Source of the DNA: Puniceicoccaceae bacterium
GTDB taxonomy: Bacteria > Verrucomicrobiota > Verrucomicrobiia > Opitutales > JAFGAQ01
Assembly: GCA_040224245.1 (NCBI GenBank)
Contig: JBEGIR010000004.1
Location: 26,707-90,706, forward strand
DNA: 64,000 bases
Reading direction: 5' to 3'
This document shows positions 4,343 to 23,871 of this stretch, piece by piece; the first letter of the stretch is position 1, and the number at the start of each line of letters is the position of its first letter. Made by a program: the position numbers and the translations under genes. The notes beneath the pieces are model-generated. The model saw nothing but the letters and a program-made list of their open reading frames with translations. It searched no databases and had not been told where the DNA came from.

Positions 4343-5200
4343 TCACTCAACCCATCGGCTGAGTGTCAGCACCAATACCGATTGGGTGTTGAAAAACGTG
4401 TGCATCCAAATGCTCGTACGCAGGTCCCCCGTATCCAGATAAATCTTGCCAAGAAGAAACCCGAGCACCGCGATCGGCAGAAACGAATCGAGGTTGAAAT
4501 GCAACAGGGCAAACAGCAACGAACTCACGATCAGCGCAACCCGGCATGAGGTCTGCCCGATCAGAAAGCGCAGCACAATGCCCCGAAACAATAGCTCCTC
4601 CAGCAGGGGAGCCGCCACGATTGCGAGCGTTGCCAATGCGAGAAATTTCCAAGGATCTTCGATACGCTGCATCAGGGTAACTGCTTCCTGTTCACCCGAA
4701 CTGATCCCCAATTGCTCATTGACCCAGATCGACAGCAGTGATGCCGCCCAGATCAATGGGAGGTAGCGCAACAATCGATCCAAGGCTATCAGCGAGGGGG
4801 ATGTTGACACACCTGAACGAAAAAAGCGCAGTTTGTAGGCATAGCGCGCACCGAGCAGAGTGAGCAGCATTGCCAGCTGGATGCTTGAGCTGTAGAGTAT
4901 CGTGTACCAACTCGTCTCCAGGCCGTCCATGGATTCAATCGCCGGATCAAATCCCGCCGGAAACACGAACCGTATGATGCCCATCGCAATCCCAAAATGC
5001 AGCATCACACCACACCACAGCACCAGCAGGAGGTCGAGCCACCCCGCGCTCCACGCATCTTGTGATGTCAACGGACTGGTTCCCGTCTCCGCAGGGCCAA
5101 CTCTCCAGCGTCTCAGCCAGAAATACAGGCAGCCGGCGAGCAGGGTCAGTCCGGCAACATTAGCGAGGGTCTCTGCGATATTGGAGGGAGAGTCATTCAT
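4343..5200 (-). CDS. CPBP (CAAX/Abi-type) intramembrane metalloprotease, about 285 aa
   Basis: Multi-TM protein with the three CPBP motifs EELLFRG, FALLH and WMHTFFN. ATG at 5200 forms an ATGA overlap with the upstream stop (5197-5199). The tracked start at 5215 is a GTG. Confidence 0.8.
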   Translation of the reverse strand: MNDSPSNIAETLANVAGLTLLAGCLYFWLRRWRVGPAETGTSPLTSQDAWSAGWLDLLLVLWCGVMLHFGIAMGIIRFVFPAGFDPAIESMDGLETSWYTILYSSSIQLAMLLTLLGARYAYKLRFFRSGVSTSPSLIALDRLLRYLPLIWAASLLSIWVNEQLGISSGEQEAVTLMQRIEDPWKFLALATLAIVAAPLLEELLFRGIVLRFLIGQTSCRVALIVSSLLFALLHFNLDSFLPIAVLGFLLGKIYLDTGDLRTSIWMHTFFNTQSVLVLTLSRWVE

Positions 5201-5664
5201 GGGTTGCGCCACCACTGAGGCCAGTTTGCGCTCGAATTGTCAAGTAACAGACGTTGACGGTCGCCATCGAGTTGGCAAATCTGCTTGCGAAACGGTAGAG
5301 CGCGTCGCACACGCGCGACCCCGCGATAAAGTAAATTCCTGACGCTGCGGGGAATCCAACGCAACCCATGCATCCATCTAACGGGTGCCCGCATGCCCGC
5401 GCACAGCTCCAGCACCGCATCGGAGCGTTCATAGATCTCATCAGGGCGCACCAGCAGGAGCGTCGTGGGTTCCGGTTCCCTGTGATTGGCGGACAACCAG
5501 CGCTGTCCGGCCTCGCTCTGTGAGGGCAGGAAGCCGGTATCGGGTTGACGTAACCACCGGATCGCCCAGCCCACGAACTGATTGCACATGCCACAGTCGC
5601 CGTCAAAGACCACGACCTGCCGAATCAATGGCCAGTTGGCCGGATCAGAGCGGGTCAATTTCAT
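5197..5664 (-). CDS. DCC-family (DUF393) thiol-disulfide oxidoreductase, 155 aa
   Basis: N-terminal signature VVVFDGDCGMCNQFV (DGxCxxC). ATG at 5664 overlaps the upstream TGA (5661-5663) as ATGA. Confidence 0.8.
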   Translation of the reverse strand: MKLTRSDPANWPLIRQVVVFDGDCGMCNQFVGWAIRWLRQPDTGFLPSQSEAGQRWLSANHREPEPTTLLLVRPDEIYERSDAVLELCAGMRAPVRWMHGLRWIPRSVRNLLYRGVARVRRALPFRKQICQLDGDRQRLLLDNSSANWPQWWRNP

Positions 5665-8081
5665 GACAGGTAGTGTTGGCGCACCAGTCGCAGTAATGCA
5701 AGAATTCCGATGGGTTTACCACCGCCCTTTCGAACCTGGTCACCGATTTCAAAGGCACTTCGCCAATGCTCCATCAACAATCGCCAGGCATGCCACACCC
5801 GGTATTTTGGATCATACATGTGCGCAGGTTCGGAGGTCAGCAGGTTTAACTCGAGGATCTGAATGGACTCTCCATTTGTCAGGGACGATTCATCCGGAAC
5901 TTTCAGATCAAAACGTCCCAGATAAAACCCATGCACAGCGTGACTGACCCGATCCAGAAACTGCCGCAAGGCGTCGCTGGTAAATTCGCAAGCATCCAGA
6001 AAAAGGGAACCGCGTGCATGAGTTCCGATTTCCACGAGCGGCACCCTTTCTCCGTCAGCCGGAATGCTGTAGATGGATTCGGCGTGCCGCTTCAAAAGGG
6101 AGGATGCATAACAGACCGCGCGTTCATCCTTGAGGATCAATCGCTCCAAGGTGCTCACTCCATCTCCCACGACTGAGGTGTAGAGCTTTCGGGTGATCGA
6201 AGGAATGCACCCTTCACTCTGCATTGGCAACCTCCGGTACAACACACCAAACTCAATCCCTGCGACATACTGCTGCACAATCAGGCGTTGGGACTGCCCG
6301 TGAAACGCATCGTCAAGATCGCTTTCCGAGCGCACAATGCACACTCCACGACCACGCTCACCGCGCTCAGGTTTGATTACGACGGGAAACTGCCATCCCT
6401 GTTCCTCCATCACTGCCCGCAATCGATGGACCGTGAGTTCATGGGGTTCCAACACGGCAAAAGGTGCCACCGGTACGCCCGCATCTGCAAGCTGACGCAG
6501 AATCTCAATTTTTGACTCTCCCAGCCATCCCCCACATGGAACCATGGGATTGCTAAGAGACGGAAGCGTCAGGCTGCGGTATCGCACTGCTAATCCCATA
6601 ATGTAAACGAAAACCGGCAAATACAGCAATTTGGAGGGCCAGAATTCCCATCGAATCACTCGCATCCACTTTCCATAGGCCAACCTTCGTCCCCGAAAGG
6701 TGAACAGGGGAATGCCTTGATGCAGGAGGGTCACCAGCGCGATCATCGCAGCCAGCATCATCCACCCCGTCCAGAACCCAAATTCATCGTACCAGTGCAG
6801 CATGCGTTCGCCCAGCCAGCTCGACAGACCGACTAACAGCGGAACCCACACGACAGCTGCACCGAGCAATACTGCCGACACGCGCCACCAGGGAGACTTG
6901 AGGATGCCCGCTGCCAGAAACACGGGCACCCGGGTGCCCGGCAGGAAGCGGCTTGCGATCAATACCCAAATGCCATTGCGCAAAAACCACCGCTCACTCG
7001 CGAGCAGGGTCTCCCTCGAGAGCATCCAACAAAAGGGTCGATGAATCAGGACTTTCTCCCCCAAAAACCGTCCCAATGCGTAAAGGGCGATGTCGCCGAA
7101 AAAAATCCCCAATACGCATCCAGCCACCGCAGGCAGAAAGGCCAGTGCTCCGTGGGAGACCAGCAACCCCGCACCCACACAGGCCAGGTCTTCGCTCATC
7201 AGGGTCGAGAGTGCGATCAAAACCACGGCTACCCACAGCGCCCGCCCCTGCCACAGTTCATGTCGCGCCGCCCACGTGTTTCGAATCTCTGCTCGCTCGT
7301 TTGGCGTGAGTCTGAGAACTTGGTGGGGTTCGGTTAGTTCCACCCGTGCAGTGAGATCCGGAACGATCCGTTCCTCATCGGCAGCGCGCATCAGACGGGA
7401 GTGAGGAATCCAGCGGTGAAGCACGCGACTCTGCTCCAGCTCCTGCCCCTGTGACACCGACAGGGAAACGGGCATCTGCAGGTCGAGCGTGTCGAGCAAG
7501 GATGGAACCGAACCACTGGCAACAATGGCTGCCGCCAATTTGGTCTCCACCAGTGATGGCGCCAGCGCCCACGCAAACGGAACCCCATGCCGCAGCATCC
7601 AGGCTATCCCACCCTGCAGACTTCGAAGACTGCGATCCAACAGGGGATGCCCAAGTGTTTCAAATGCAGGCAGCCCTTTTGCATCAATGAGAACCAAATG
7701 CGAACACCACTCTGGATGTTCATTGGCAAATGCGAGTGCGGTCATGCAGGCATAGGATTCTGCAACAATGACGACAGGGGCTTGACTGCTTGTGAAATCC
7801 ATCTCTGGCACCTTCAGCCCTCCAGTCATGCCCTCAAAGGTGCGTACAATCGCGTGGAAACGGGTTGCATCTTTCACCCAAACCCTGCCGTCATCACTAA
7901 ACCACACTGCGGCCTCAAACTGGCTCAGAAAACGCACCATGCTTTCGCTTGCCGGAGGTGAATCCTGCGTGTCACCAACGTGCAGATCATGCAGGCGGGC
8001 AGAGAGTGCCAGCAGCAGGAAGTAGATGAGTCCCGACACCAGCATCCACCAACGTTTTCGAGTCTGCATCATGTCGATCAT
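5661..8081 (-). CDS. Multi-domain membrane protein, 806 aa: N-terminal TM helix, alpha/beta-hydrolase-like region, DedA/VTT domain and C-terminal ATP-grasp ligase domain
   Basis: Hydrolase-like VVIVAESYACMTALAFANEHPEWCSHLVLID. DedA/VTT core GDIALYALGRFLG...IASRFLPGTRVPVFLAAG. ATP-grasp FPVVIKPERGERGRGV, QQYVAGIEFGV and ILELNLLTSEPAHMYD. ATG at 8081 overlaps the NRDE stop as ATGA; the tracked start at 8111 would overlap it by 34 nt. Confidence 0.75.
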   Translation of the reverse strand: MIDMMQTRKRWWMLVSGLIYFLLLALSARLHDLHVGDTQDSPPASESMVRFLSQFEAAVWFSDDGRVWVKDATRFHAIVRTFEGMTGGLKVPEMDFTSSQAPVVIVAESYACMTALAFANEHPEWCSHLVLIDAKGLPAFETLGHPLLDRSLRSLQGGIAWMLRHGVPFAWALAPSLVETKLAAAIVASGSVPSLLDTLDLQMPVSLSVSQGQELEQSRVLHRWIPHSRLMRAADEERIVPDLTARVELTEPHQVLRLTPNERAEIRNTWAARHELWQGRALWVAVVLIALSTLMSEDLACVGAGLLVSHGALAFLPAVAGCVLGIFFGDIALYALGRFLGEKVLIHRPFCWMLSRETLLASERWFLRNGIWVLIASRFLPGTRVPVFLAAGILKSPWWRVSAVLLGAAVVWVPLLVGLSSWLGERMLHWYDEFGFWTGWMMLAAMIALVTLLHQGIPLFTFRGRRLAYGKWMRVIRWEFWPSKLLYLPVFVYIMGLAVRYRSLTLPSLSNPMVPCGGWLGESKIEILRQLADAGVPVAPFAVLEPHELTVHRLRAVMEEQGWQFPVVIKPERGERGRGVCIVRSESDLDDAFHGQSQRLIVQQYVAGIEFGVLYRRLPMQSEGCIPSITRKLYTSVVGDGVSTLERLILKDERAVCYASSLLKRHAESIYSIPADGERVPLVEIGTHARGSLFLDACEFTSDALRQFLDRVSHAVHGFYLGRFDLKVPDESSLTNGESIQILELNLLTSEPAHMYDPKYRVWHAWRLLMEHWRSAFEIGDQVRKGGGKPIGILALLRLVRQHYLS

Positions 8082-8830
8082 TGGGTGGATTCCCGTTGCA
8101 AGCTCAGGCATAGGGGAGCTGAAAATTCGGGACCCTCTCCCATGGGTTCGCTGTAGGCAAAACGAACGTGTTGTGCGTCCACATCCACGCGCGAATGACT
8201 CACGGTGCGCGCATCCTCACGCACCATGTTGACCGATTCCGCACCCTGCCCCGGGATTCGGTTGCGGTGGAAATACTCCAGTTCACAAAGGCGTTGCTGC
8301 CTCTCGGTTGCTCTCACTTGTGCTGCAAAACTGGCCCGGCGCGCGCCAACAATTCGATCATTTTCGAAGGATGAACTGCTAACGGCCGCATCACACCTCC
8401 ACGAATGCTCATGCAGCTGCACTTCGGACCCATCCCAAAACAAGCTGTGCACTCCCTGAATCGGATCAAATTGAAAGAGATGAAACGCAGGATAGCGCTT
8501 GAGATCAAGTTCCTGAATTCGCATCTGAGTTTCGCTCCAGCCCGAGCTGTCGCGAAGCGTCATCACCAACCAGCCACGGCTTTCAAATTCACCTGAGCAA
8601 GCATCCGCTGAACCTACATCAAACCGATTCAGCAGGCAGGTGGTGACTCCCGCCGCATTAACCACCATCCAGGTTCCCCCTCTGGCACCGTCTCGCGCAT
8701 GGATGCAGCGCCGCTCATTCCCAGCTCCCGTGATTTGAATGGGCTCAGCGGGAGCACGTTCCCGGCGTTCGTCACGGTTGAACAATACCGTGTACTGATC
8801 GAGTGCGAATTCCCAGGTCAAGGTGCACAT
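8078..8830 (-). CDS. NRDE-family (TANGO2/DUF833-like) protein, 250 aa
   Basis: ATG at 8830 gives MCTLTW...VLFNRDE, the Met-Cys start and NRDE motif of the family. The tracked start at 8854 adds 8 residues and overlaps the DinB stop. Confidence 0.75.
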   Translation of the reverse strand: MCTLTWEFALDQYTVLFNRDERRERAPAEPIQITGAGNERRCIHARDGARGGTWMVVNAAGVTTCLLNRFDVGSADACSGEFESRGWLVMTLRDSSGWSETQMRIQELDLKRYPAFHLFQFDPIQGVHSLFWDGSEVQLHEHSWRCDAAVSSSSFENDRIVGARRASFAAQVRATERQQRLCELEYFHRNRIPGQGAESVNMVREDARTVSHSRVDVDAQHVRFAYSEPMGEGPEFSAPLCLSLQRESTQ

Positions 8831-8850: not shown

Positions 8851-9387
8851 TCAAGCACCCGTATTGCGAGCAGCCCGATAGTGCAAGGTGGATGGTGCCA
8901 CCCCAAAAACCTCTGGAACTGTCACTCCCATGGCTTCACAATGCATCGCAATGATCGCAAAATGGTGCACGGTGTGACTGACAAGGAACTGCCATTCTCT
9001 GCCAACACTGGATAAACAGGAATCCGGCTGTTGGCTGTCTGCATTCATTCCCGTCTGCATGCAAACCCGCAAGGGCTGTTCCATTGAGGGGGTCTTCAGA
9101 TTGCGCAAGCGACTCAGGATCAAATCGATACAGTCTGCCGCATGTTGGACGGATTGTTCCTGCTCTGGGGAACGATTGCGGTGATCGTAGTCCACCATGT
9201 CCCGCTCATTTTCCAGACAATCCAGTAAACATTCGTAATGATCCGAAACATGACGCAAGTGTGCTCCGATGCCCGATTTGCCACCGGGAACCTGCACCTG
9301 CGAAAATCGCTCATCATCCAATGCAGCAAGCAGTGTTTTAGCAGATTCCAAAAAAGTGATATTGGCTTCAATCAAGGCAGGAGGCAT
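8851..9387 (-). CDS. DinB-superfamily (four-helix bundle, metal-binding) protein, 178 aa
   Basis: ATG at 9387. His-rich motifs HLRHVSDHYECLL and HTVHHFAIIAMH are typical of DinB/YfiT-like proteins. Confidence 0.7.
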   Translation of the reverse strand: MPPALIEANITFLESAKTLLAALDDERFSQVQVPGGKSGIGAHLRHVSDHYECLLDCLENERDMVDYDHRNRSPEQEQSVQHAADCIDLILSRLRNLKTPSMEQPLRVCMQTGMNADSQQPDSCLSSVGREWQFLVSHTVHHFAIIAMHCEAMGVTVPEVFGVAPSTLHYRAARNTGA

Positions 9388-9543: not shown

Positions 9544-10473
9544 CTATGAAGGCGTTGACGCCGGAGTGACAGGTTCGTTCTCAGAACCAGTCGTCTTGCC
9601 GCTTGGATCGATCATTTGCGGTCTGCGGTGGGTCAGAATCGCCACCACGCAGGACGCGACAATAAAGGTGCTGACGAGATAGAAGACTGCATTCGGGGCT
9701 TCGCCAAACACCCAAAATGCCAGCACACCCGCAAACAGAAACTGACTCACATTCATCACACCGACAATTTGCCCGCGGAGGTGACGCATCGCATTATTGA
9801 TCAGTGTATGACCCATCGCACCCGGGATCAGTGCCAACAACAAAGCCATCAGGTAATCGCGAGGACCATTGTCCAGAAGCTGCTCAAATCGAAGAAGGCT
9901 GACCGCGAGGCACATGGCTGATGCACTCACATAGACTGGAACAATGTAAACAAAGACGGAATGTGCGCTGCGGTTCTTGCGCCCAAGCGACAGATAGGCA
10001 GCAAAGAGCAACATCGATGCAAAACAGATGAGATCTCCCATCATGTGCTCCCGGGAGAAGTGGTAGTCATTCATCGCCAGTATCGCGATGCCCGCCATCG
10101 AAACCAGGGTCGCGACCACCTCCACTCGGTTCACCCGCTCGCGGTGCGTCAGCCACAGCAAAAACGGTAGTGCGATGGGTACCATGTTGACAATCAGGGT
10201 TCCATGAGCCGCCAGCGTCAACCGCACACCCTCGTTCCAGGTGATGAAATGCGCCGCGAGAAAAAAGCCTGCCGGAAGGGAGGAAAGCCAGATTCGCCGA
10301 AACTGAATATTGCCTGCCCGACGACAGTCCCGAATAAACCAGGGAGCCAGCAACAAGGATGCCATGAGCAGTCGAAGACCCGCGAGGTAGGCAGGATCCA
10401 TCGTCGTGGATTTGATGAAAATCACCGATGACGAACAGGCAACAATGCCAAGAAAAAGTCCGACCCAAACCAT
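9544..10473 (-). CDS. DMT-superfamily transporter (two EamA domains), 309 aa
   Basis: About 10 predicted TM helices. The N- and C-halves are internally duplicated in the EamA pattern, with a hydrophilic C-terminal tail. Confidence 0.85.
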   Translation of the reverse strand: MVWVGLFLGIVACSSSVIFIKSTTMDPAYLAGLRLLMASLLLAPWFIRDCRRAGNIQFRRIWLSSLPAGFFLAAHFITWNEGVRLTLAAHGTLIVNMVPIALPFLLWLTHRERVNRVEVVATLVSMAGIAILAMNDYHFSREHMMGDLICFASMLLFAAYLSLGRKNRSAHSVFVYIVPVYVSASAMCLAVSLLRFEQLLDNGPRDYLMALLLALIPGAMGHTLINNAMRHLRGQIVGVMNVSQFLFAGVLAFWVFGEAPNAVFYLVSTFIVASCVVAILTHRRPQMIDPSGKTTGSENEPVTPASTPS

Positions 10474-10489: not shown

Positions 10490-11389
10490 TTATTTGCGCA
10501 TCCATCGACGAATCAACAGGAAAGTCAGTACGCAGCCCGCAAAGATCTGCGCCGAAAGCAGGATTGCGCTGCCACTGATCCCCTCGATCCACAGCAGGCG
10601 ATCAAGGGTGTCCCCAAACTCATCTTCGAGAATCGACCTCCCCCATTTCTCGGCGGTTTCGGGATCCAGTTCAAACAGTCCATGCACAGCCTCCACAAAC
10701 TCTATCGTCTGCATCGGCTCGTAACCAAGCCAGCCGATTTCGCTCAGATCCGGTGCAAATACCCGCAGTTCTGGAATGGTGGACACGGGACGCTGCTGCA
10801 AAGGTTCGCCATCCGGAAATATCTCGCCTGCACTCGATGATCCCTCGAGTTGCGGTGCTTCAAACCACAACAACACCAGAAAATCCTGCGCGTAATGGAC
10901 AAATTCGGGACTGCGAAAATGTCGCTCCCATTCCCGACAGGAAGAACAGTCCTCTGCACTCGAAATCACGACGAGCAATGGACGCTGCTCTTGAACGGCC
11001 ACTTCGCTTGCCTGCTTCCAATCGCTGTACCAAGACAGTCCGGTATCCGACTGTCTTGCCTCAGGGGCAGAAGTTGCGCCGCCCGATGACTCAGCACCAT
11101 GGTTTGTTTCGGACAAATTGCGCTGCCAGGAGCTTTCTCCAGATTGCCGGATGATCTGGTCAGCACTGCCATAAAAGCCTTCACTCAATCGCACCACCCG
11201 TCCATCCCTCACATGCACGCCACCCTGTGGATAGCTGTAGATCGTGGTCGTTCCCCGCAGGATTTCTGCTGTCGGCTCCCCCAGCTCCAAGCGCATTTTG
11301 CTGACGCTGTCACCCGGTTCCAGTCTGGCATAGCTGACACTTGCAGCACACAGAAATAGACTCAGAAACAGAAAAAAGACAGGTTTCAT
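10490..11389 (-). CDS. Exported, C-terminally membrane-anchored thioredoxin-fold protein with a CSSC (CxxC) motif, 299 aa
   Basis: Internal ATG at 11389 gives the signal peptide MKPVFFLFLSLFLCAASVSYA. Trx-like segment LLVVISSAEDCSSCREWERHF and C-terminal TM helix ILLSAQIFAGCVLTFLLI. The tracked 463-aa version runs antisense through the tauE gene. Confidence 0.55.
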   Translation of the reverse strand: MKPVFFLFLSLFLCAASVSYARLEPGDSVSKMRLELGEPTAEILRGTTTIYSYPQGGVHVRDGRVVRLSEGFYGSADQIIRQSGESSWQRNLSETNHGAESSGGATSAPEARQSDTGLSWYSDWKQASEVAVQEQRPLLVVISSAEDCSSCREWERHFRSPEFVHYAQDFLVLLWFEAPQLEGSSSAGEIFPDGEPLQQRPVSTIPELRVFAPDLSEIGWLGYEPMQTIEFVEAVHGLFELDPETAEKWGRSILEDEFGDTLDRLLWIEGISGSAILLSAQIFAGCVLTFLLIRRWMRK

Positions 11390-11485
11390 GATGCGTGGGG
11401 ACGAGATCAGACGTTCAGTCCAGCTATACCTGAAATTTTCAATCTTTCGAGTCGAAATCCCCCGGAAATTGCGAAGACTGCGAGC

Positions 11486-12250
11486 ATGATGCTCGGACTC
11501 GACCTGATGGATTGTGCAATTGGCATACTCGCGGCATTGCTGGTGGGACTGGGGAAAGGTGGACTTCCGGGTGCCGGAAACCTTTCTGTCATTCTCATGG
11601 CCATGATCTTCCCAAGCCGGGAATCGGTTGGCATTCTCTTGCCCATCCTCATCTGTGCCGATGTGGTGGCCGTAGCGGTCTATCATTCCCACACCCAGTG
11701 GACACACCTGTGGCGACTGCTTCCCTGGACCCTGCTCGGGGTGGTGGCAGGGGCTTTTGTTTTTCAAAACATGGACGACGCACTGCTGACACGCGTGATC
11801 GGTGCCATTTTGCTGCTCATGGTCGCACTGACACCCCTGCGCAAGTATTTCCAGCAACACCCGGATGAACTTCCCGGACAACGCCTGACCTTCAAGCAGC
11901 AGGCCTTCGTCGGATCGACAGGTGTGCTCGGAGGCGTCGCCACCATGGTGGCCAACGCAGCAGGCCCGGTCATCGGTATCTATCTGATGATGTCACGCCT
12001 TCCCAAATTTGCCTTCATCGGCACGGCAGCCTGGTTTTTCTTCATCATCAACCTGTGCAAGATGCCCATCCAGGTCGGCATTGGCAACATCACATGGGCG
12101 TCACTGAAGTTGAGTGCCGGATTTGGCGTTTTTGCCGTAGTCGCAGCCATGATCGCACCTCGCCTCATGAAGTGGGTGCCCCAGCACATTTTCAGCTTTC
12201 TGGTGTGGCTTTTCATTGTTGTCGCAGGGGTGAAAATGCTGTTGTTTTGA
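11486..12250 (+). CDS. TauE/SafE-family sulfite/anion exporter, 254 aa
   Basis: ATG at 11486. Polytopic membrane protein with the family-typical GLGKGGLPGAG and duplicated 4-TM halves. Confidence 0.85.
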   Translation: MMLGLDLMDCAIGILAALLVGLGKGGLPGAGNLSVILMAMIFPSRESVGILLPILICADVVAVAVYHSHTQWTHLWRLLPWTLLGVVAGAFVFQNMDDALLTRVIGAILLLMVALTPLRKYFQQHPDELPGQRLTFKQQAFVGSTGVLGGVATMVANAAGPVIGIYLMMSRLPKFAFIGTAAWFFFIINLCKMPIQVGIGNITWASLKLSAGFGVFAVVAAMIAPRLMKWVPQHIFSFLVWLFIVVAGVKMLLF

Positions 12251-13480: not shown

Positions 13481-15028
13481 ATGGCTGAGAACCAACGACA
13501 TCCGTTCCTGACAGGGCTTAGCAAACACCGCGGGGCTAACCCAACGATCCTCGTGATCTTCGGTGCCTCCGGAGACCTCACGCAGCGCAAGCTCATTCCT
13601 GCGCTCTACAACCTGGGAGTGGATAATCTGCTGCCCTCAGACTTCACCCTCATCGGATTTGGCCGCAAGGAGATTCCCAATCCGGAGTTCCGTCAGTTCG
13701 CGCGCGATGCCGTCGAAACCTTCTCGCGCCGGGGTCTCGACAAAGACATCTGGGAACGCATCGAACCCAATATCGAATACCTCGCTGGTTCCTACGACGA
13801 TCTGAATGCCTTTCAACGCCTGCACGACCGCGTACACGAAATTGAGGCCGAACATGATCGCCAGTTCCAGCTGCTCTACTACATTTCAACACCACCGAGC
13901 GTGTTCGAACCCATTGTCACCAATCTGGGCGAAAGCAAGCTGTCCCGCCACGGGCACTCCTCTGGACTCAAACCCAAAATCGTAATCGAAAAACCGTTCG
14001 GCAAGGATCTTGAAACGGCACGGGAACTCAACCGAACCATCCTTCAACAGTTCGACGAAGATCAGGTCTACCGCATCGACCACTATCTGGGCAAAGAAAC
14101 GGTGCAGGATCTGCTCGTACAGCGTTTTGCCAACGCCATTTTTGAACCCATCTGGAACCGCGAATACGTGAGCTGTGTGCAGATCACGGTAGCAGAGCAG
14201 CTCGGCGTCGGATCGCGCGCTGGCTACTACGACCAGAGCGGTGCCCTGCGCGACATGATTCAGAATCACACGATGCAGCTGCTCTCCCTCACGGCGATGG
14301 AACCACCCGTGTCGCTCGACCCCGAGTCCATCCGCGATGAGAAAGTGAAGGTGCTCAAGGCCATCCAGCCACTGGAGCTTCGCAAGGATGGGGGAGATGC
14401 CGTGCGCGCCCAGTATCGGGAAGGTCTGGTGGAGGGCAAGCGCGTCCCGGGATACCTCGACGAGCAGGACGTTCCCCAGCGCTCCACAACCGAAAGCTAT
14501 GCCGCGCTTCGCCTGTTCATCAACAACTGGCGATGGAAGGGAGTCCCGTTCTACCTGCGCTCAGGCAAGCGCATGGCCCGGCGCATCAGTGAAATCGCCA
14601 TCGAATTCAAACGCCCCCCCGGCATCCTGTTCAGTGAAGGCAACCGATTCGACCTGTCGCCCAATGTCATGGTGATTCGCGTGCAGCCCGACGAAGGAGT
14701 GACTCTGCTGCTCAACTCCAAAATCCCCGGTTTGGAAACGCGAACCCAGCCGGTGAAAATGCATTTCAACTACTCAACGACCTACGGCTCCAATACTCCG
14801 GAAGCCTACGAGCGCCTCATCCTTGATGCTCTCGTCGGAGACAGTACGCTCTTCATACGTGGTGATGAAACAGAGGAATCCTGGCGCATCATCACGCCGC
14901 TTCTTGACTATTGGAAAGAACATGGGCAACAGGGTCTCGAAACCTACTCGGCAGGCTCATGGGGACCGCTCGCCGCCGAACGCATGCTCTGGGATCTTCG
15001 TCACGAGTGGCGTCGCCCCAGCGTCTGA
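13481..15028 (+). CDS. zwf: Glucose-6-phosphate 1-dehydrogenase, 515 aa
   Basis: NADP-binding motif FGASGDLTQRKLIPAL, active-site motif RIDHYLGKE, and full-length G6PD architecture. Confidence 0.95.
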   Translation: MAENQRHPFLTGLSKHRGANPTILVIFGASGDLTQRKLIPALYNLGVDNLLPSDFTLIGFGRKEIPNPEFRQFARDAVETFSRRGLDKDIWERIEPNIEYLAGSYDDLNAFQRLHDRVHEIEAEHDRQFQLLYYISTPPSVFEPIVTNLGESKLSRHGHSSGLKPKIVIEKPFGKDLETARELNRTILQQFDEDQVYRIDHYLGKETVQDLLVQRFANAIFEPIWNREYVSCVQITVAEQLGVGSRAGYYDQSGALRDMIQNHTMQLLSLTAMEPPVSLDPESIRDEKVKVLKAIQPLELRKDGGDAVRAQYREGLVEGKRVPGYLDEQDVPQRSTTESYAALRLFINNWRWKGVPFYLRSGKRMARRISEIAIEFKRPPGILFSEGNRFDLSPNVMVIRVQPDEGVTLLLNSKIPGLETRTQPVKMHFNYSTTYGSNTPEAYERLILDALVGDSTLFIRGDETEESWRIITPLLDYWKEHGQQGLETYSAGSWGPLAAERMLWDLRHEWRRPSV

Positions 15029-15078
15029 TGCACAATGCGATCCGGGACTTACTTCTCCCCGACACAACCGATTGATCC

Positions 15079-16074
15079 ATGGCTTCCATTTTAGACAATC
15101 TACCCGGCGTTCCCATGCCGATCTCCGAAATCTCCCGCCAACTGAGAGAAATGTGGCGTGGCGACGAGGATTCGAAGACCTCTGCTCCCTCAGAGTTTCG
15201 CGCCTCACAGCTCAATCTCATCCTTCACGTGGGTTGGGATACCAGTGAATCCGAGGCCCAGTCCCTCTTTGAGGCTGCGATCCAGTTTACGCAACGCCAT
15301 CCTGGCCGCATTCTGTTTTTGGCCCCCTCTGAAGATGCCGGAGAGGCCGATGTGCTCAAGGGCAAACTGTTCACTCAGTGTTACATTGGTGAGAGTCACC
15401 GGGAAATGTGCTGCTGTGAGGCTGTACTGTTGGAATATGCATCGAGCGAACCTCGTTCGCTGTTCAACCAGGTATCGGTGTGGCTGGAAAGCGACCTCCC
15501 GATCTATCACTGGTTCCACCGCATGCCCGTAAAGGCCGTGAAGAACAAATACCTCGCATTTGTGAAAAACTCGAAGCGCATCCTGTACGACTCCGCCGTG
15601 GAGAGCGATGACTATCAGGAAATCCCAACCCCAGACCCCTGGCGCATCCGGGACCTTGCAGATGCACGCATGCTCCCGATCAAGCAATCCATCGGACAAG
15701 TCCTCAGTACGTTTGACCCCGCACTCATTGTGGATGGACTGCACACCATCGAAGTGCGCTCCCATAAAGCCCATCGTGCCAATGCTCACCAATTGCGCAA
15801 CTGGCTCGAACGCTGTCTTGATCAAACACCCGCATTTCTCGGCACAAAACCCTCGGTCCCTTTCCGGTGCTGCGAATTGGAATGCGAGGATACCAGCCTT
15901 GAGGTCGAGTTTCTGTATGACAATGCGCAGCGGTTTCACTGGATACTCTGTGCATCGGGAAACGAGGCAACCTCAACCTCCGTCCTGGGTAATCGCAGCG
16001 GCACCCACCACGCCAGCTTTCGCCCGCTCGAACCTGTCAGCGTACTCGCAGAGGCGATCTTTTTCGGTCGCTGA
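15079..16074 (+). CDS. opcA: OpcA-like G6PD assembly/effector protein, 331 aa
   Basis: Lies immediately downstream of zwf on the same strand (50-nt gap). N-terminal pattern ...ISRQLREMW...RASQLNLILHV resembles OpcA proteins. Call rests on synteny plus weak motif recognition. Confidence 0.55.
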   Translation: MASILDNLPGVPMPISEISRQLREMWRGDEDSKTSAPSEFRASQLNLILHVGWDTSESEAQSLFEAAIQFTQRHPGRILFLAPSEDAGEADVLKGKLFTQCYIGESHREMCCCEAVLLEYASSEPRSLFNQVSVWLESDLPIYHWFHRMPVKAVKNKYLAFVKNSKRILYDSAVESDDYQEIPTPDPWRIRDLADARMLPIKQSIGQVLSTFDPALIVDGLHTIEVRSHKAHRANAHQLRNWLERCLDQTPAFLGTKPSVPFRCCELECEDTSLEVEFLYDNAQRFHWILCASGNEATSTSVLGNRSGTHHASFRPLEPVSVLAEAIFFGR

Positions 16075-16153: not shown

Positions 16154-17248
16154 TTACAACGGGATCTCGATCACAATCGATCCATATGAGACATCCCTAC
16201 GGGTTTCCGACCCGTTCGAAATCACATCCGCATGAATGTTTTCGAGCAGCGGACTTGAGAATACCAGTCCGACTCGCAAGGTGAAGCGATTTCGAATCTG
16301 ATAGGAAGTCGTGATCCCCAAACTGACTATCCCTGGCTTTCGCTCAACCTTTCGATCATCACTGGTCAACATGCTTCCATCATAGATGACCGAGTATGCA
16401 ATCCAATTTGCACCCAGCGACAGATCGAATTCGAGCGACTGACTCGATGCTCCCTCATCCAATGGAGCAAACCCTCCATCTGCAATGCCAACACCTGGTG
16501 GAGCGGGTTCGGGTGAGAATCCGACAGGTAAATTCCACCCCCAGCGCAAAGCGACACTTGTATCCAAGCCTGTCATCAAGTTCCCAAACTGTCCGCCCGA
16601 TGCGACCAGCAAAGACCCCGACCAATCATTCTGCCTTACTCCCCAACGCCACAACTTTCGTTTGTATTGAATCGCCAGGTTCAACAGTAACTCCGTCTCC
16701 CGCTGAGTATCCCAACCTTCAGGGCTTTGTCCCAAACCCAGTTTCGAATGAACGAAATCCTGAATGCGTCCACCTGCAGACTCATCTCCAAGCACACCTG
16801 CCGTTAATTGCAGAGCGCGTTGTTCTTCTTCGTTGAAAAACTGCCAGATCTTCGAAAGCGTCAGCGTGCTCCCATAAGGTAACTCCCCCTCCTCCCAGGT
16901 CTCCGCCTGAAGATCCCCCGGCGTCACCAGCAACTGACCCACAGCATAGCCTTCCCTGATCCACCCACTTTTCCGACTCCCGGCAACCCATCTCAGCGGC
17001 CAGTTGAATGCATTTCCGGATCCGAAATTCTCGCCATCTGCTGCCCTCAAATCATCGAAAAACTGGATGCTCAACCCACTCGTAAAATTGGAGTCCTCCT
17101 TGAGGAAGGCATCATTTCCGATTTCAACCCTCCAAAATCCTCCTGCTTCACCAGCTTCTTGATGGACCTCAGCTTGCGCTGGAGTGACAACCCCGCCAGA
17201 GAGCATGACGAATACCAGCAACTCGGTACGCACGAGCATGCTCAGCAT
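16154..17248 (-). CDS. LpxR-family (DUF2219) outer-membrane protein, putative lipid A 3'-O-deacylase
   Basis: Signal-like MLSMLVRTELLVFVMLSGGVVTPAQA begins at ATG 17248. Family-like segments VEIGNDAF...FTSGLSIQF and GGRIQDFVHSKLG...PEGWDTQRETELLLN. Confidence 0.6.
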   Translation of the reverse strand: MLSMLVRTELLVFVMLSGGVVTPAQAEVHQEAGEAGGFWRVEIGNDAFLKEDSNFTSGLSIQFFDDLRAADGENFGSGNAFNWPLRWVAGSRKSGWIREGYAVGQLLVTPGDLQAETWEEGELPYGSTLTLSKIWQFFNEEEQRALQLTAGVLGDESAGGRIQDFVHSKLGLGQSPEGWDTQRETELLLNLAIQYKRKLWRWGVRQNDWSGSLLVASGGQFGNLMTGLDTSVALRWGWNLPVGFSPEPAPPGVGIADGGFAPLDEGASSQSLEFDLSLGANWIAYSVIYDGSMLTSDDRKVERKPGIVSLGITTSYQIRNRFTLRVGLVFSSPLLENIHADVISNGSETRRDVSYGSIVIEIPL

Positions 17249-17413
17249 TCCCCGGATCGCTTGCACCCCAAAGCGTGCAAACCCAATGCCATTCTGAGTT
17301 TTCCGCAAAACGTGGGAAAAATGTATTCGACAAAAACGCATTCAAAATCGTGCGATGGCTATCATTCCATATTCGCTCCAGAACCGACCAGACAGGACGC
17401 AAGCAGAACAAGA

Positions 17414-18122: not shown

Positions 18123-19556
18123 TCAGAATATACCTGCCACCTCCGCATTTATGTCCTCTGCAGTAAACCCGCCTCCCAGGCTGCGATAGAGCGACACATT
18201 GCTGCGCTCCACCTGTCGAACAGACGCAAGCAGTGATTGTTTGCCGTCAACATAGGCACGCCTTGCTTCCAATAACTGGTAATAGTCCATCGATCCCGCA
18301 TCGAATCGAACCTGCGATATCCGCAAGACCTCTTCAAGTGCCTGCAATCGATTGCGGTTTGCCTGCAACACCTGCTCGCTTTCTGCCCGCTGTGTCAAGG
18401 CATCGGAAACCTCCCGAAATCCCTGTTGAATCGAACGTTCATACTGGGCTACCGCCATTTCACGCGACGCCTCGGAAGCGTCCCGGTTGGCAATCAGGCG
18501 CCCACCCTGGAAAAGTGGAATCCGGATGCGCGGCACAAAGCTCCAGACATCCGTTCCACTGGAGAACAGATCCGTGAGGTCACCACTGGCACTTCCGACT
18601 GCCCCCGTCAGAACAATGGAGGGAAAAAACGCCAGTCGGGCTGCTTCCAAATTCGCCTCAGCAGCGACCAGCGTCCATTCTGCGGCCCGGATATCGGGTC
18701 GCCGCAGTAACAATTCGGAGGGAAGACCTTCGGGAATCTGAAACGCACGTGTCACAGCCAGATCCAGCGTCATCCCCAACCCAGCAAGGTCGAGCGGTTG
18801 CCCGACAAGCAGAGTCAAGGCATTGAGCGAAGTGTTCATCGATGCCTTGTAATTCGCCACGCTGGCCGCAGCTTGCTCCATGACAGCGCGCGTCTGGCTG
18901 ATTTCGAGTGACGATGCTGTTCCAAACCGGATTCGTTCCTGCAGAATACCCATTTGTTCTTGATAGTTCTTCAGAGTCTCCTCTGCCAATGCCAGTGCTT
19001 CCGCATTATAGACGTAGTCAAGGTAGGCATCCGCCACTTCCGCCAGCAATGTCAGCCGAACCGTATGCTGTGCTTCTTCGGTTGCGAGATACTGGTGCAG
19101 TGCCTCCCGGCTCAGTTGTTTGACACGTCCGAACAGGTCAATCTCGAACTGTGCAAGACCCACCTCTACACGGTACGATTCCACGGATTCACCACCACCT
19201 CCACCGGATCGCGTCAATGATCCATCCACAGCGAAAAACGGATATTGATCCGCACGCTGGATGCGGTACATCGCCCGCGCTCGCTCCACATTGAGAATGG
19301 AAACCCGCAGATCCCGATTATTGGCCAACGCCATCTCCATGAGGTCTTTCAGTCCCGCGTGCTGGTAAAACGCTTCCCAATTGACCACGTTTTCCCAATC
19401 TGTGCCACCGTGCATGGAGGTTCCCTGAGGAACTTGCCACTGCGTTGAGACAACTGGAGTGGTCGATTCCACTGATTTCGGCGGCAGCGTAGCGCAACCA
19501 CTTAGTAAAATGATCGTTGCTCCCAACGATGCCCATTGAATAAAGGCCTTATGCAT
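18123..19556 (-). CDS. RND efflux outer-membrane factor lipoprotein (NodT/OprM family), 477 aa
   Basis: ATG at 19556 gives MHKAFIQWASLGATIILLSGC (lipobox), 2 nt after the RND pump stop. Two tandem OEP repeats are present. Confidence 0.9.
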   Translation of the reverse strand: MHKAFIQWASLGATIILLSGCATLPPKSVESTTPVVSTQWQVPQGTSMHGGTDWENVVNWEAFYQHAGLKDLMEMALANNRDLRVSILNVERARAMYRIQRADQYPFFAVDGSLTRSGGGGGESVESYRVEVGLAQFEIDLFGRVKQLSREALHQYLATEEAQHTVRLTLLAEVADAYLDYVYNAEALALAEETLKNYQEQMGILQERIRFGTASSLEISQTRAVMEQAAASVANYKASMNTSLNALTLLVGQPLDLAGLGMTLDLAVTRAFQIPEGLPSELLLRRPDIRAAEWTLVAAEANLEAARLAFFPSIVLTGAVGSASGDLTDLFSSGTDVWSFVPRIRIPLFQGGRLIANRDASEASREMAVAQYERSIQQGFREVSDALTQRAESEQVLQANRNRLQALEEVLRISQVRFDAGSMDYYQLLEARRAYVDGKQSLLASVRQVERSNVSLYRSLGGGFTAEDINAEVAGIF

Positions 19557-22500
19557 GAGTTCCTTGTGGTTTTCTCCGTATGAAGAGACGTTCAATCACA
19601 TAAAAGAATAGGGGCACGAGAAAGATACCCAGTGTCGTGCCCACAATCATCCCACCAAGCACTCCAAATCCAATGGCGTTCTGCGCACCCGACCCAGCAC
19701 CATCGGCCATCGCAAGCGGGACAACCCCAAATCCAAATGCGAGCGAGGTCATCAGGATGGGTCGCAAACGATCCCGCACTGCTGCCAGAGTGGCCTCCCG
19801 CAATCGCATGCCCTGTTTGAGATTGAGCGTTGCAAATTCAACGATCAAAATCGCATTTTTGCTGGTGAGGCCCACTGTCGTGAGCATGGCAACCTGAAAA
19901 TAGATGTCCCGCTCCAGGCCTGACAGAACCGCTGCCAGCAGAGACCCCAACACTCCCAGCGGAGCCGCCATGATCACGGCGGTAGGGATGCTCCAACTCT
20001 CGTAAAGCGCTGCCAGTGCAAGGAATACAATCACCAGCGACAGCAAATACAGCCCCGCCGTTTGATTCCCAGCCTGACGCTCTTGATAGGAAGTCGTCGT
20101 CCACTCAATTCCAAAACCCTGTGGAAGCATTTTCGCAAGGTTTTCGATCTCATCCATCGCTTGTCCCGAACTCACTCCGGGTGCGCCCTGGCCCTGAATG
20201 TTGACCGCTGCAACACCGTTGTAGCGCTCCAGCCGCGGAGACCCGTAAGTCCAATGGGTCTGTGCAAACGCGGCAAAAGGCACCATTTCCCCAGCCGCAT
20301 TTTTGACACTCCATTCGAGAAAATCCTCTTCCTGCATTCGGAAGGGAGCAGCTGACTGCAGGATCACTTTCTTCACGCGCCCATTGTCGATGAAATCATC
20401 GATGTAACGGCCGCCCCATGCGACCCCAAGCGTGTTGTTGACTTCCGCCACGTTGAGTTGATGAGCCACCGCCTTCCGCGTGTCGACCTCCAGCTGCAGT
20501 TGCGGTGCATCCTCCATACCGTTGGGTCGCACATTGGCCAGAAGCGGATTTTGCGAAGCCATGTACAGAAGCTGGTTCCTTGCATCCATCAGTGCCCGAT
20601 GCCCTAGCCCTGCATTGTCCTTGAGGTAGAAGTCAAAGCCTGTCGAATTGCCCAGCTCCATGATGGGTGGAGGTGCAAAAGCAAAGACCATGGCTTCCTT
20701 GATTCCCATGAACGCAGCACTAGCCCTTCCCACAATTGCAGAAACGTGTTTTTCAGGTTCTTTGCGTTCAGACCAATCTTTCAGATCCACAAACGCCATG
20801 CCGCTATTCTGACCTGATCCCGCAAAACTAAATCCCTGCGCAAGGAAGATATTTCGAATCACATCACTCTCATGATTCATGAGGTAGTGCTCCATTTTTT
20901 TCACCACCTCCGTGGTATTCTCTTCCGTCGAACCAGTTGGCCCCATGATCATTGCAAAAAAGCTTCCTTGGTCTTCGTCGGGCAGAAAGCCTGTCGGAAC
21001 GCGGAGGAAGGCAAAGACCATCAATCCAACGATGACTGCATACGCCATCATTCCCCGGATACGACGGGAGGTTATGGCATCAACCACCCGCTGGTAACGG
21101 GAGTTTGCTGCATCAAAACTACGGTTGAACCAGCCAAAGAATCCCTTCTCACGAATATGGTGTCCTTTCTCAATCTGCTTGAGCATCGTCGCGCACAGAG
21201 CAGGCGTAAACACGATGGCCACGATGACCGAAAGCGTCATTGATGAAACAATGGTGATCGAAAATTGACGATAAATCACTCCTGGTGCTCCCGCCATGAA
21301 GGCCATCGGCAAAAAGACAGCAGAGATCACAACACCGATTCCGATCAAGGCACCCGTTATTTGATCCATTGATTTTCGCGCTGCTTCTTTGGGGGTCAGA
21401 CCCTCCTCAGACATGAGGCGTTCCACGTTTTCCACCACGACAATCGCGTCATCCACCAAAAGACCGATCGCCAGCACCATGGCAAACATCGTAAGCATGT
21501 TGATCGAAAACCCAAATGCCGCCAACACCCCGAAGGTTCCCAGCAACACCACCGGAATCGCAAGGGTTGGAATCAGGGTGGCCCGCCAGTTTTGGAGGAA
21601 CAGAAACATCACCAGAAACACCAATAGGATCGCTTCGAGCAATGTCTTCACCACTCCTTTGATCGCCACCTTGACAAAGGGAGTGGTATCAAAGGTTTTG
21701 GAAACCTGCAGCCCAGATGGAAGGTATTGCTGCTCTTGCTTCATGAATGCTTCCACCTTCTTTGCCGTATTCAGCGCATTTGCCCCTGTTGCGAGAGAAA
21801 TCGCCACACCCGTCGCTGCCTTGCCGTTGTAGCGGCTTCTCATGGCATGACTTTCTTTTCCCAGCTCCACCTCTGCAATGTCACCCAGTGTCAGGCTCGA
21901 ACCATCTGCCAGACTCGAAACAATGATTTCGCGGAACTGATCTGCTGTCTGAAGACGGCCACGGGTGTTTACCGTGAAGTTGATCTGTTGTCCCTCGACC
22001 AGCGGACTGCCTCCCAACGCCCCAATCGCTACCTGCTGATTCTGCGACTGAATCGCTGCCATAACCTCACTCACCGATAACTTGTAGGCTTCGAGCAACT
22101 TGGGGTTTAGCCATATCCTCATGGCATATTGCGAGTTGAATACCTGAACCGAACCCACTCCTTCGATGCGCCCGATAGCCTCTTTGAGATTCGAGGAAAC
22201 ATAGTCCCCAATCTCACCATCACTCATGCTCCCATCCTCGGAGTAGAATGCGATCACCATCAGAAAGCTATCATTGCCCTTATTCACGGTGACTCCTTGC
22301 TGCTGCACACTCAAAGGCAGCAGTGGCATCGCCGCCTGCAGTTTGTTTTGCACCTGCACCTGGGCAATGTCCGCATCGGTGCCAGTTTCAAAGGTGAGTG
22401 TGATTTGGGCTGATCCATTGGAGGAGCTGTTCGAAGACAAATAAATCAGCCCATCCAGTCCCGTAAGATTTTGCTCGATGATCTGCGTTACCGAGTTCTC

Positions 22501-22671
22501 GATCACACTGGCAGAAGCGCCCGGATAAGCTGCCTGAATCGTCACCGACGGCGGTGCGATTTGCGGATACTGTGAAATGGGAAGGGTGACCATGGACAGT
22601 CCCCCTGCGATCATGATGATCAGTGCAATGACCCACGCAAAAATGGGCCTGTCGATAAAAAACCGTGCCAT
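19549..22671 (-). CDS. RND multidrug efflux permease (HAE1, AcrB/MexB-like), 1040 aa
   Basis: N-terminus MARFFIDRPIFAWVIALIIM. 12-TM architecture with two large periplasmic loops and conserved TM4 segment AIGLLVDDAIVVVEN. Confidence 0.95.
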   Translation of the reverse strand: MARFFIDRPIFAWVIALIIMIAGGLSMVTLPISQYPQIAPPSVTIQAAYPGASASVIENSVTQIIEQNLTGLDGLIYLSSNSSSNGSAQITLTFETGTDADIAQVQVQNKLQAAMPLLPLSVQQQGVTVNKGNDSFLMVIAFYSEDGSMSDGEIGDYVSSNLKEAIGRIEGVGSVQVFNSQYAMRIWLNPKLLEAYKLSVSEVMAAIQSQNQQVAIGALGGSPLVEGQQINFTVNTRGRLQTADQFREIIVSSLADGSSLTLGDIAEVELGKESHAMRSRYNGKAATGVAISLATGANALNTAKKVEAFMKQEQQYLPSGLQVSKTFDTTPFVKVAIKGVVKTLLEAILLVFLVMFLFLQNWRATLIPTLAIPVVLLGTFGVLAAFGFSINMLTMFAMVLAIGLLVDDAIVVVENVERLMSEEGLTPKEAARKSMDQITGALIGIGVVISAVFLPMAFMAGAPGVIYRQFSITIVSSMTLSVIVAIVFTPALCATMLKQIEKGHHIREKGFFGWFNRSFDAANSRYQRVVDAITSRRIRGMMAYAVIVGLMVFAFLRVPTGFLPDEDQGSFFAMIMGPTGSTEENTTEVVKKMEHYLMNHESDVIRNIFLAQGFSFAGSGQNSGMAFVDLKDWSERKEPEKHVSAIVGRASAAFMGIKEAMVFAFAPPPIMELGNSTGFDFYLKDNAGLGHRALMDARNQLLYMASQNPLLANVRPNGMEDAPQLQLEVDTRKAVAHQLNVAEVNNTLGVAWGGRYIDDFIDNGRVKKVILQSAAPFRMQEEDFLEWSVKNAAGEMVPFAAFAQTHWTYGSPRLERYNGVAAVNIQGQGAPGVSSGQAMDEIENLAKMLPQGFGIEWTTTSYQERQAGNQTAGLYLLSLVIVFLALAALYESWSIPTAVIMAAPLGVLGSLLAAVLSGLERDIYFQVAMLTTVGLTSKNAILIVEFATLNLKQGMRLREATLAAVRDRLRPILMTSLAFGFGVVPLAMADGAGSGAQNAIGFGVLGGMIVGTTLGIFLVPLFFYVIERLFIRRKPQGTHA

Positions 22672-22680
22672 ACTCGCTCC

Positions 22681-23811: not shown

Positions 23812-23871
23812 TACTTTGAATTGTTGATCCACCGAAAATGACGGAGCAAAATGATCCGTCAATAAAAATGG

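Follow-up and report, generated by a model that had tools for sequence, protein, structure and literature searches.

Under phosphate, acid and heat stress, amino-acid lipids take the place of phospholipids, and some of them are immune ligands; to my knowledge, no enzyme is described that elaborates their head groups beyond hydroxylation and methylation. Proteins of the DedA family, for their part, are implicated in phospholipid handling. The ATP-dependent transfer of taurine to the carboxylate of ornithine lipid, giving cerilipin, is an activity known since the 1970s whose gene is unidentified, and Ser-Gly and Orn-Ser-Gly head groups exist as well, with glycine lipid as an intermediate (PMC12971839). 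PlaF is an N-terminally anchored periplasmic phospholipase A1 acting on glycerophospholipids (PMC9132575). Here, I describe a gene in a stretch of 64,000 nucleotides from a Puniceicoccaceae bacterium (contig JBEGIR010000004.1; the window) whose product of 806 amino acids (aa), the fusion, comprises from its N-terminus an anchor helix, a dead alpha/beta-hydrolase fold, a DedA/VTT membrane domain and an ATP-grasp ligase with an intact catalytic set. The fusion family is real, widespread and previously undescribed, and the main new result is its conserved aminolipid-gene context; the fusion may well serve as both ligase and translocator in a conserved module for amino-acid lipids (acyloxyacyl aminolipids).

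All open reading frames (ORFs) within 6 kb of the gene were clustered in 82 loci and the top clusters annotated, and neighbours were counted over the 56 loci with at least 3 kb of upstream DNA. A DinB-fold protein (Pfam DinB_2) is encoded upstream in 46 of these 56 loci, an OlsB-like N-acyltransferase (PF13444; best NCBIfam match OlsB, 142 bits) in 44, an OlsA-like O-acyltransferase (PF01553; best NCBIfam match OlsA, 137 bits) in 37 and a TANGO2-type Cys-Ntn (cysteine N-terminal nucleophile) hydrolase (Pfam TANGO2) in 23, the scores of both acyltransferases falling below the equivalog cut-offs. The prevailing order is OlsB>OlsA>DinB>(TANGO2)>fusion, co-directional, with overlaps or gaps of tens of bases. 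Because most relatives share an operon with enzymes of amino-acid-lipid synthesis, the fusion is a strong candidate for an aminolipid-modifying enzyme.

DinB and TANGO2 are constant partners, which an earlier note, made from the letters of the window alone, had not seen. The Met-Cys start and the NRD(E) motif are kept in 27 of 28 TANGO2 orthologues of related loci, and the DinB genes keep their His triad; in a protein of 1,121 aa (P0177), TANGO2 (MCT... start, NRDE), an anchor helix, an active hydrolase, VTT and ATP-grasp even form one chain. TANGO2 homologues sit between DinB and the fusion gene in aminolipid clusters (the window; loci L003, L013-L018 and L086). From the crystal structure published in 2026, TANGO2 was proposed to be a Cys-Ntn hydrolase with fatty-acid derivatives as its substrates (PMC13044924), and in view of this structure and of the acyltransferase context the heme-trafficking role (PMC10470608) was not adopted for the TANGO2 partner. 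In a Rhodothermales metagenome-assembled genome (MAG; L002, 7308-11426), the fusion has an MlaE-type permease on one side and, on the other, an ATP-binding cassette (ABC) ATPase that was called in two pieces, with OlsB-OlsA-DinB and an unannotated 412-aa gene upstream; this arrangement may point to a connection with Mla-like lipid transport.

No partner accompanies this ATP-grasp more constantly than the DinB-fold protein. In Turneriella a stand-alone ligase (L085) comes directly after DinB; in a Planctomycetes MAG the stand-alone ATP-grasp is preceded by AhpC-DinB-TANGO2, with a bifunctional synthase of the OlsF type 0.7 kb away; and the order in Gemmata is DoxX-DinB-TANGO2-(VTT+ATP-grasp)-AhpC. 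Neighbours of redox type, DoxX and AhpC, are met again in other phyla. Bacillithiol and mycothiol transferases are DinB-fold proteins, and the constancy of DinB could thus be read as the mark of a low-molecular-weight-thiol or redox module, in which a GshB/GshF-like ligase would make a thiol peptide, soluble or lipid-anchored, DinB would serve as S-transferase and VTT would anchor or export. GshF/GshAB are indeed among the closest structures of the ligase, DoxX occurs in 14 of the 56 loci, AhpC/Redoxin in Gemmata and L086, and Thioredoxin_7 and DCC1-like genes in the window. Such a module is nonetheless unlikely, for the strongest and most widespread linkage is that to OlsB/OlsA, the ligase is always membrane-attached, and there is no GshA-type cysteine-ligase partner among the conserved neighbour clusters.

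The family extends far beyond the Opitutales. A scan of 1.84 billion representatives at 50% identity returned 5,007 family matches, 1,719 of them with E<=1e-30, and at least 590 loci were found in the species-representative genome collection. These loci are distributed over Opitutales/Puniceicoccaceae, Blastocatellia and other Acidobacteriota, Balneolaceae/Rhodothermia and Pseudomonadota MAGs, and further over Desulfobacterales, KSB1, Calditrichota, Leptospirales and Planctomycetota; among the cultured bacteria that carry the gene are Gemmata obscuriglobus (GobsT_10620), Frigoriglobus tundricola and Leptospira vanthielii. Three length clusters can be told apart, namely three-domain proteins of ~830-900 aa, VTT + ATP-grasp proteins of 520-620 aa and ligases alone of 350-360 aa, the ligase being membrane-attached in all forms. 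A protein of 1,073 aa (P0054) has a 637-aa N-terminal region without Pfam match in place of the hydrolase domain. In public databases the members bear only names such as "VTT domain-containing protein", "alpha/beta fold hydrolase" or "carboxylate--amine ligase", and literature searches on DedA or SNARE-associated proteins with ATP-grasp, and on aminolipid clusters with DinB, turned up no paper that describes the family.

The minus-strand ORF 5661..8111 is open throughout, and its ATG at 8081, overlapping the TGA stop of the upstream gene (ATGA), gives the 806-aa product. A local fusion or a frameshift joining separate genes, a concern voiced in the earlier note, is ruled out by an independent contig of the European Nucleotide Archive, which encodes a product of the same 806-aa length with 99% identity (P0001), and by the 54 three-domain loci across phyla. 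The three-part architecture proposed there (hydrolase-like, DedA/VTT and ATP-grasp) is likewise confirmed by Pfam, by AlphaFold2 and Foldseek and by alignment to relatives, with VTT_dom, RimK and Dala_Dala_lig_C all scoring above their gathering scores; the coordinates it gave hold to within a few codons for each domain, and the motifs it quoted (AESYA, GDIALYALGRFLG, IASRFLPGTRVPVFLAAG, VVIKPERGERGRGV and ILELNLLTSEPAHMYD) are all present in the translation. The AlphaFold2 model was built on 70 homologues and has a mean pLDDT (predicted local distance difference test) of 88.2. The hydrophobic segments of the fusion lie at residues 12-30, 281-340, 401-419 and 435-460. A profile of the whole protein run against the PDB was dominated by hydrolase matches, so that the C-terminal and N-terminal parts were searched separately.

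In the C-terminal part, several ATP-grasp models of Pfam stack on residues 523-613, two of them marginally passing the gathering score (RimK, 23.4 against 21 bits; Dala_Dala_lig_C, 24.6 against 24 bits). The profile of the C-terminal 347 residues finds in the PDB the G domain of CphA1 (E 1e-7), CphA2, GshAB and a RimK-domain protein, and Foldseek with the AlphaFold2 model finds the G domain of cyanophycin synthetase 1 (7wae, E 1.3e-9), GshF and Ddl, with probability 1.0; both rankings agree in placing primer-extending carboxylate-amine ligases nearest. The catalytic set comprises K570 (VVIKP), the glycine-rich loop G574-G579, E610, R723 and D725 (GRFD), and E744 and N746 (ELN). K570, the loop residues G574, R576 and G577, E610, R723, D725, E744 and N746 are invariant across 20-70 homologues, and the catalytic residues align with the ATP/Mg residues of CphA1 (VIKP, E-V-N). 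The fold and the residues for ATP/Mg2+ and for the acyl phosphate are hence those of the ATP-grasp superfamily, and the ligase domain is, as far as residues can tell, catalytically intact. It is not a cyanophycin synthetase, for the NCBIfam model TIGR02068 gives 39.4 bits over 120 residues against a cut-off of 850 and the Mur-ligase-like M domain is absent.

A conserved juxtamembrane segment precedes this domain. It consists of a basic amphipathic helix (RGRR..RWEFWP), a 14-residue hydrophobic helix (488-501) and an NP..GG..GESK motif, and stands where ATP-grasp enzymes usually have their N-terminal substrate domain. Stand-alone ligases retain it, their match starting from profile position 1-4. 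As the juxtamembrane helices replace the substrate domain and persist even in stand-alone forms, the substrate would come from the membrane.

As for the membrane domain, VTT_dom (PF09335) matches residues 305-419 with 42.2 bits against a gathering score of 33.9. Two predicted re-entrant hairpins, with tips at S296-E297-D298 and at P381-G382-T-R384, are combined with three transmembrane helices, and E297, D298, D330, R378, P381, G382, R384 and G392 are invariant in 70 sequences. Profile score and conserved charged signatures of the re-entrant loops alike thus place the domain in the DedA/VTT family; its first re-entrant loop is presumably some six residues shorter than in the DedA proteins of E. 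coli. Its best NCBIfam match is UptA (NF052604), with 51.2 bits against a cut-off of 250, so that the domain does not qualify as a UptA equivalog. This match, together with the good structural matches to Ddl, would suit an enzyme of polyprenyl-phosphate-linked precursors, in which a UptA-like DedA domain would handle undecaprenyl phosphate or lipid II and a Ddl-like ATP-grasp would add an amino acid to a peptide stem or a glycan. Considering how far the UptA score lies under its cut-off, that CphA and GshF match better than Ddl, and that murein and polysaccharide genes are absent from the conserved neighbours, this is improbable. By sequence, the fusion belongs to the DedA/VTT and ATP-grasp superfamilies and to none of their characterised families.

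The N-terminal part has a history of loss. On the hydrolase-like region of the window's protein Abhydrolase_1 (Pfam) scores 15 bits only, yet the region aligns column for column with the canonical hydrolase domains of relatives (20 full-length homologues). A separate AlphaFold2 model of the N-terminal region (pLDDT 75.7) retrieves alpha/beta-hydrolases from the PDB by Foldseek with probability 1.0, E 2e-5 and modest template-modelling (TM) scores of 0.3-0.38. In the PDB this dead domain matches best DLK2, KAI2 and D14, hydrolases of the receptor type. More distant homologues have textbook HGSP, G/A-x-S-x-G, Asp and His, which the window's protein and its closest relatives lack; all four elements (HG, G(A)xSxG, Asp, His) are retained in about 42 of 54 three-domain relatives, and the window's protein has QD, AESYA, Q and a gap at these positions. 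The fold is thus that of serine hydrolases and the catalytic residues are not, in line with the earlier suspicion of a degenerate hydrolase. The residues were lost independently, with the fold kept, in the Opitutales-type clade of the window and in Balneolaceae; the hydrolase-dead loci are, in Balneolaceae, L053, L059, L063, L067, L072 and L076, and, in the Opitutales type, the window, L001, L006, L007 and L019. The hydrolase profile of the family matches polyhydroxybutyrate (PHB) depolymerase (PhaZ), lipases and the membrane phospholipase A1 PlaF (6i8w, E 8e-20). The dead domain of the window descends from an active, PlaF-like ancestor and is probably structural only.

The anchor helix, which spans residues 2-38 in the AlphaFold2 model, bears on the topology. 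Family means of lysine plus arginine (K+R) are 4.1 before it and 1.0 after it, and 6.6 and 6.4 for the loops 341-369 and 460-487; two-domain proteins have short uncharged N-termini directly ahead of the first VTT helix; and the 1,121-aa protein carries an N-terminal TANGO2, which must be cytosolic. On account of this charge bias, of the N-termini of the two-domain forms, of the PlaF precedent and of the cytosolic TANGO2 fusion, the N-terminus is predicted inside and the hydrolase(-like) domain in the periplasm, with the first VTT hairpin entering from outside, the second from inside, and the ATP-grasp domain in the cytoplasm. The sidedness guessed in the earlier note, with the ligase cytoplasmic and the hydrolase-like part periplasmic, is therefore the one to which these four indirect lines point.

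Architecture and predicted topology also fit an MprF-like enzyme, whose ATP-grasp would aminoacylate a glycerophospholipid (phosphatidylglycerol, phosphatidylethanolamine or phosphatidylserine), whose VTT would flip the product and whose periplasmic hydrolase would reverse the modification. The role ascribed to DedA proteins in the handling of phospholipids speaks for it. So does the resemblance of the relatives' hydrolase to PlaF, an enzyme active on glycerophospholipids (PMC9132575). Homology is not part of the likeness: the MprF domains LPG_synthase_TM and LPG_synthase_C (DUF2156) have no Pfam match in the fusion at E<=1, nor has the VirJ domain (PF06057), and the AcvB/VirJ kinship which the earlier note had seen in the hydrolase part gives way to a PlaF, lipase and PHB-depolymerase type. 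Moreover, conservation in the neighbourhood concerns aminolipid acyltransferases instead of phospholipid genes, and ATP-grasp enzymes activate carboxylates, of which phosphatidylglycerol has none, which together make an MprF-like enzyme quite unlikely. From the earlier interpretation, then, the architectural analogy to MprF and the general idea of an ATP-dependent, tRNA-independent, translocator-coupled enzyme acting on a membrane lipid stand, and the homology, as well as aminoacyl-phosphatidylglycerol or a polyprenyl carrier as its lipid, do not, the neighbourhood being OlsB/OlsA-like.

The window itself (Table 1) shows a local variant of this neighbourhood. Thioredoxin_7, EamA, DinB, TANGO2, fusion, DCC1-like and CPBP protease genes form a co-directional run with several overlaps, and the order is identical in an Opitutales MAG whose fusion is 49% identical. 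TANGO2 most likely starts at the ATG at 8830 (MCTLTWEF...), which gives it Cys2 and the NRDE motif. The Opitutales-specific extension of the operon (thioredoxin-like and EamA; DCC1-like and CPBP) was seen in the window, L001, L006 and L008.

Table 1. Features of the fusion gene and its surroundings (window positions; residues of the 806-aa product)
Feature	Residues	Position	Strand	Basis or remark
Coding sequence of the 806-aa fusion		5661..8081	-	stop codon 5661-5663; start overlaps upstream TGA
N-terminal membrane anchor helix	12-30	7992..8048	-	hydropathy; K/R-rich N-terminus precedes
Degenerate alpha/beta-hydrolase fold	~40-270	7272..7964	-	predicted periplasmic; AESYA replaces GxSxG
DedA/VTT membrane domain	279-460	6702..7247	-	Pfam VTT_dom; AlphaFold2 helices; conservation
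Juxtamembrane segment	461-520	6522..6701	-	invariant columns; K+R mean 6.4
ATP-grasp ligase domain	521-806	5664..6521	-	predicted cytoplasmic; catalytic set intact by residues
TANGO2-family Cys-Ntn hydrolase, upstream partner		8078..8830	-	Pfam TANGO2, 38.5 bits
DinB-fold metalloprotein, upstream partner		8851..9387	-	Pfam DinB_2, 26.8 bits; His triad H46, H138, H142
EamA-type carboxylate/amino-acid/amine transporter, upstream		9544-10473	-	kept in closest Opitutales loci
Thioredoxin-like protein (Thioredoxin_7), upstream		10490-11881	-	kept in closest Opitutales loci
DCC1-like thiol-disulfide oxidoreductase, downstream		5197..5664	-	start overlaps stop of fusion; Opitutales-specific
CPBP/Rce1-like intramembrane protease, downstream		4343..5215	-	overlaps DCC1-like gene; clade-specific operon member
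Glucose-6-phosphate dehydrogenase, then OpcA-like assembly protein		13481-16074	+	
LpxR-family outer-membrane lipid A deacylase		16154-17341	-	Pfam, 148 bits
Complete RND (resistance-nodulation-division) efflux operon		18123-23862	-	outer-membrane factor, AcrB-type pump (1,040 aa, 1,219 bits), HlyD-type adaptor

Several points weigh against the assignment of the fusion to an aminolipid module. No OlsB or OlsA homologue was found by hidden Markov model (HMM) search in the 64 kb of the window, so that an OlsBA cluster is absent from this locus; the clade of the window and Gemmata carry DinB-TANGO2-fusion only, with neighbours of thiol/redox type. I know of no role for DinB in aminolipid chemistry. 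The VTT domain is dispensable in some lineages, for which reason a flippase role is not obligatory; the predicted topology leans on charge bias and analogy; and the best 120 named matches are from Gemmata, Frigoriglobus, Leptospira and MAGs, with no cerilipin or flavolipin producers among them, a listing that is no real test.

Since olsBA is adjacent in relatives and not at this locus, the aminolipid link of the window's copy is one by orthology. OlsH (GH3-like) was looked for by scanning ten large ORFs of the window, which proved to encode unrelated proteins (glucose-6-phosphate dehydrogenase, LpxR, RND efflux, helicase, major facilitator superfamily transporter and kinases). According to a review of 2026, Opitutales and Gemmatales have homologues of OlsH, and Puniceicoccales have homologues of OlsF (PMC12971839), in view of which the lipid could be made elsewhere in the genome of the window. 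The same absence of adjacent olsBA in the window's clade and in Gemmata could be taken to mean that the fusion is itself a fourth type of lyso-aminolipid synthase, its ATP-grasp joining a free (3-hydroxy) fatty acid to an amino acid in place of OlsB, OlsF or OlsH in Opitutales and Gemmata, and OlsH offers a precedent for an ATP-dependent, carrier-independent enzyme of this kind (PMC12971839). This is highly improbable, given that OlsB lies beside the gene in ~79% of loci, where such an activity would be redundant, and that the nearest relatives of the ligase activate alpha-carboxylates of peptides, not fatty acids. Each of the four alternatives set out above is less supported by synteny than the aminolipid module.

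Within that module, I infer a substrate, a reaction and a direction of transport as follows. The OlsB-like and OlsA-like acyltransferases, whose genes would be elsewhere, or replaced, in the clade of the window, would produce an N-acyl amino-acid lipid whose head-group carboxylate is free. The cytoplasmic ATP-grasp domain, held at the membrane surface by the juxtamembrane helices, would activate this carboxylate as an acyl phosphate and join it to an amine, be it a second amino acid, taurine or the like; a reaction of carboxylate with amine is proposed because the nearest relatives (CphA G, GshF, RimK) lengthen a primer at its C-terminal carboxylate. The DedA/VTT domain would present the lipid or move it between leaflets, and in most relatives the periplasmic PlaF-like hydrolase would trim acyl chains at the outer face. 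Further steps, here left undefined, would fall to DinB and to the TANGO2-type Cys-Ntn amidase. Reasoning from these relatives, the fusion most likely adds an amine to a lipid head-group carboxylate on the cytoplasmic face, and head-group extension in this specific form is offered as a tentative proposal. It is equally a matter of conjecture, and somewhat doubtful, whether this family supplies the ATP-dependent ligase that is missing for aminolipid head groups and would form, with DinB and TANGO2, a so far unrecognised cycle of aminolipid building and remodelling across both leaflets.

TANGO2 is also a matter of debate in human disease research, where its native substrate is disputed and its function is seen either in heme trafficking or in lipid-amide hydrolysis, and the tight linkage of TANGO2 genes to the family, with occasional fusion, bears on that question. 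Should the proposal be true, TANGO2 would gain a concrete bacterial substrate class, the N-acyl amide lipids. The family, found in thousands of genomes across Acidobacteriota, Verrucomicrobiota, Planctomycetota, Rhodothermota/Balneolales, Leptospirales and other groups, provides a specific candidate for the orphan ATP-dependent head-group ligase; were it that ligase, the enzyme class would explain cerilipin and the di- and tripeptide head groups (Ser-Gly, Orn-Ser-Gly), and it would be the first case shown both of an ATP-grasp enzyme acting on a lipid of the bilayer and of a DedA domain that shares its chain with a defined enzymatic partner.

How the fusion stands to known systems differs from part to part. 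With the cerilipin ligase of Gluconobacter cerinus (1976-78) it would share the reaction type, an ATP-dependent amide formed on the alpha-carboxylate of an aminolipid; the amine used by that ligase is taurine, and there is no evidence of the family in Gluconobacter. The G domain of CphA, the C-terminal domain of GshF and RimK are the best sequence and structure matches of its ATP-grasp, which has in common with them the K/E/R-D/E-x-N set and the lid motif GDGxST(L/I)xxLI, and differs in that juxtamembrane helices replace the substrate domain, that the protein is membrane-integrated and that the scores lie far under the cut-offs. The motifs RFxPGxR...AG and GxxxGDxxxYxxGR of the DedA/VTT family (YqjA, YghB, UptA, TMEM41B, VMP1) are also found in the fusion, where, unlike in the members of that family, VTT is joined on both sides to enzymatic domains. 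The hydrolase profile of the family matches PlaF of P. aeruginosa over the whole length of 6i8w, and in both proteins a single N-terminal helix is the anchor and the catalytic domain faces the periplasm (for the orientation of PlaF, PMC9132575), this being the predicted side in the fusion; unlike PlaF, the window's protein has neither the Ser-Asp-His triad nor the oxyanion HG, and its hydrolase domain precedes nine more membrane-embedded or soluble elements.

Along the same line, MprF together with AcvB/VirJ follows the same logic of a cytoplasmic head-group enzyme fused to a translocator, with a hydrolase on the periplasmic side. MprF draws on aminoacyl-tRNA and modifies phosphatidylglycerol, whereas the fusion would use ATP by way of an acyl phosphate and its likely substrate is an aminolipid; its translocator is a DedA/VTT domain instead of the MprF flippase domain, and its hydrolase, unlike AcvB/VirJ, is PlaF-like and part of the same chain. 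By this analogy, the fusion would be of a known kind, a head-group-modifying enzyme fused to a lipid translocator, assembled from a new set of domains.

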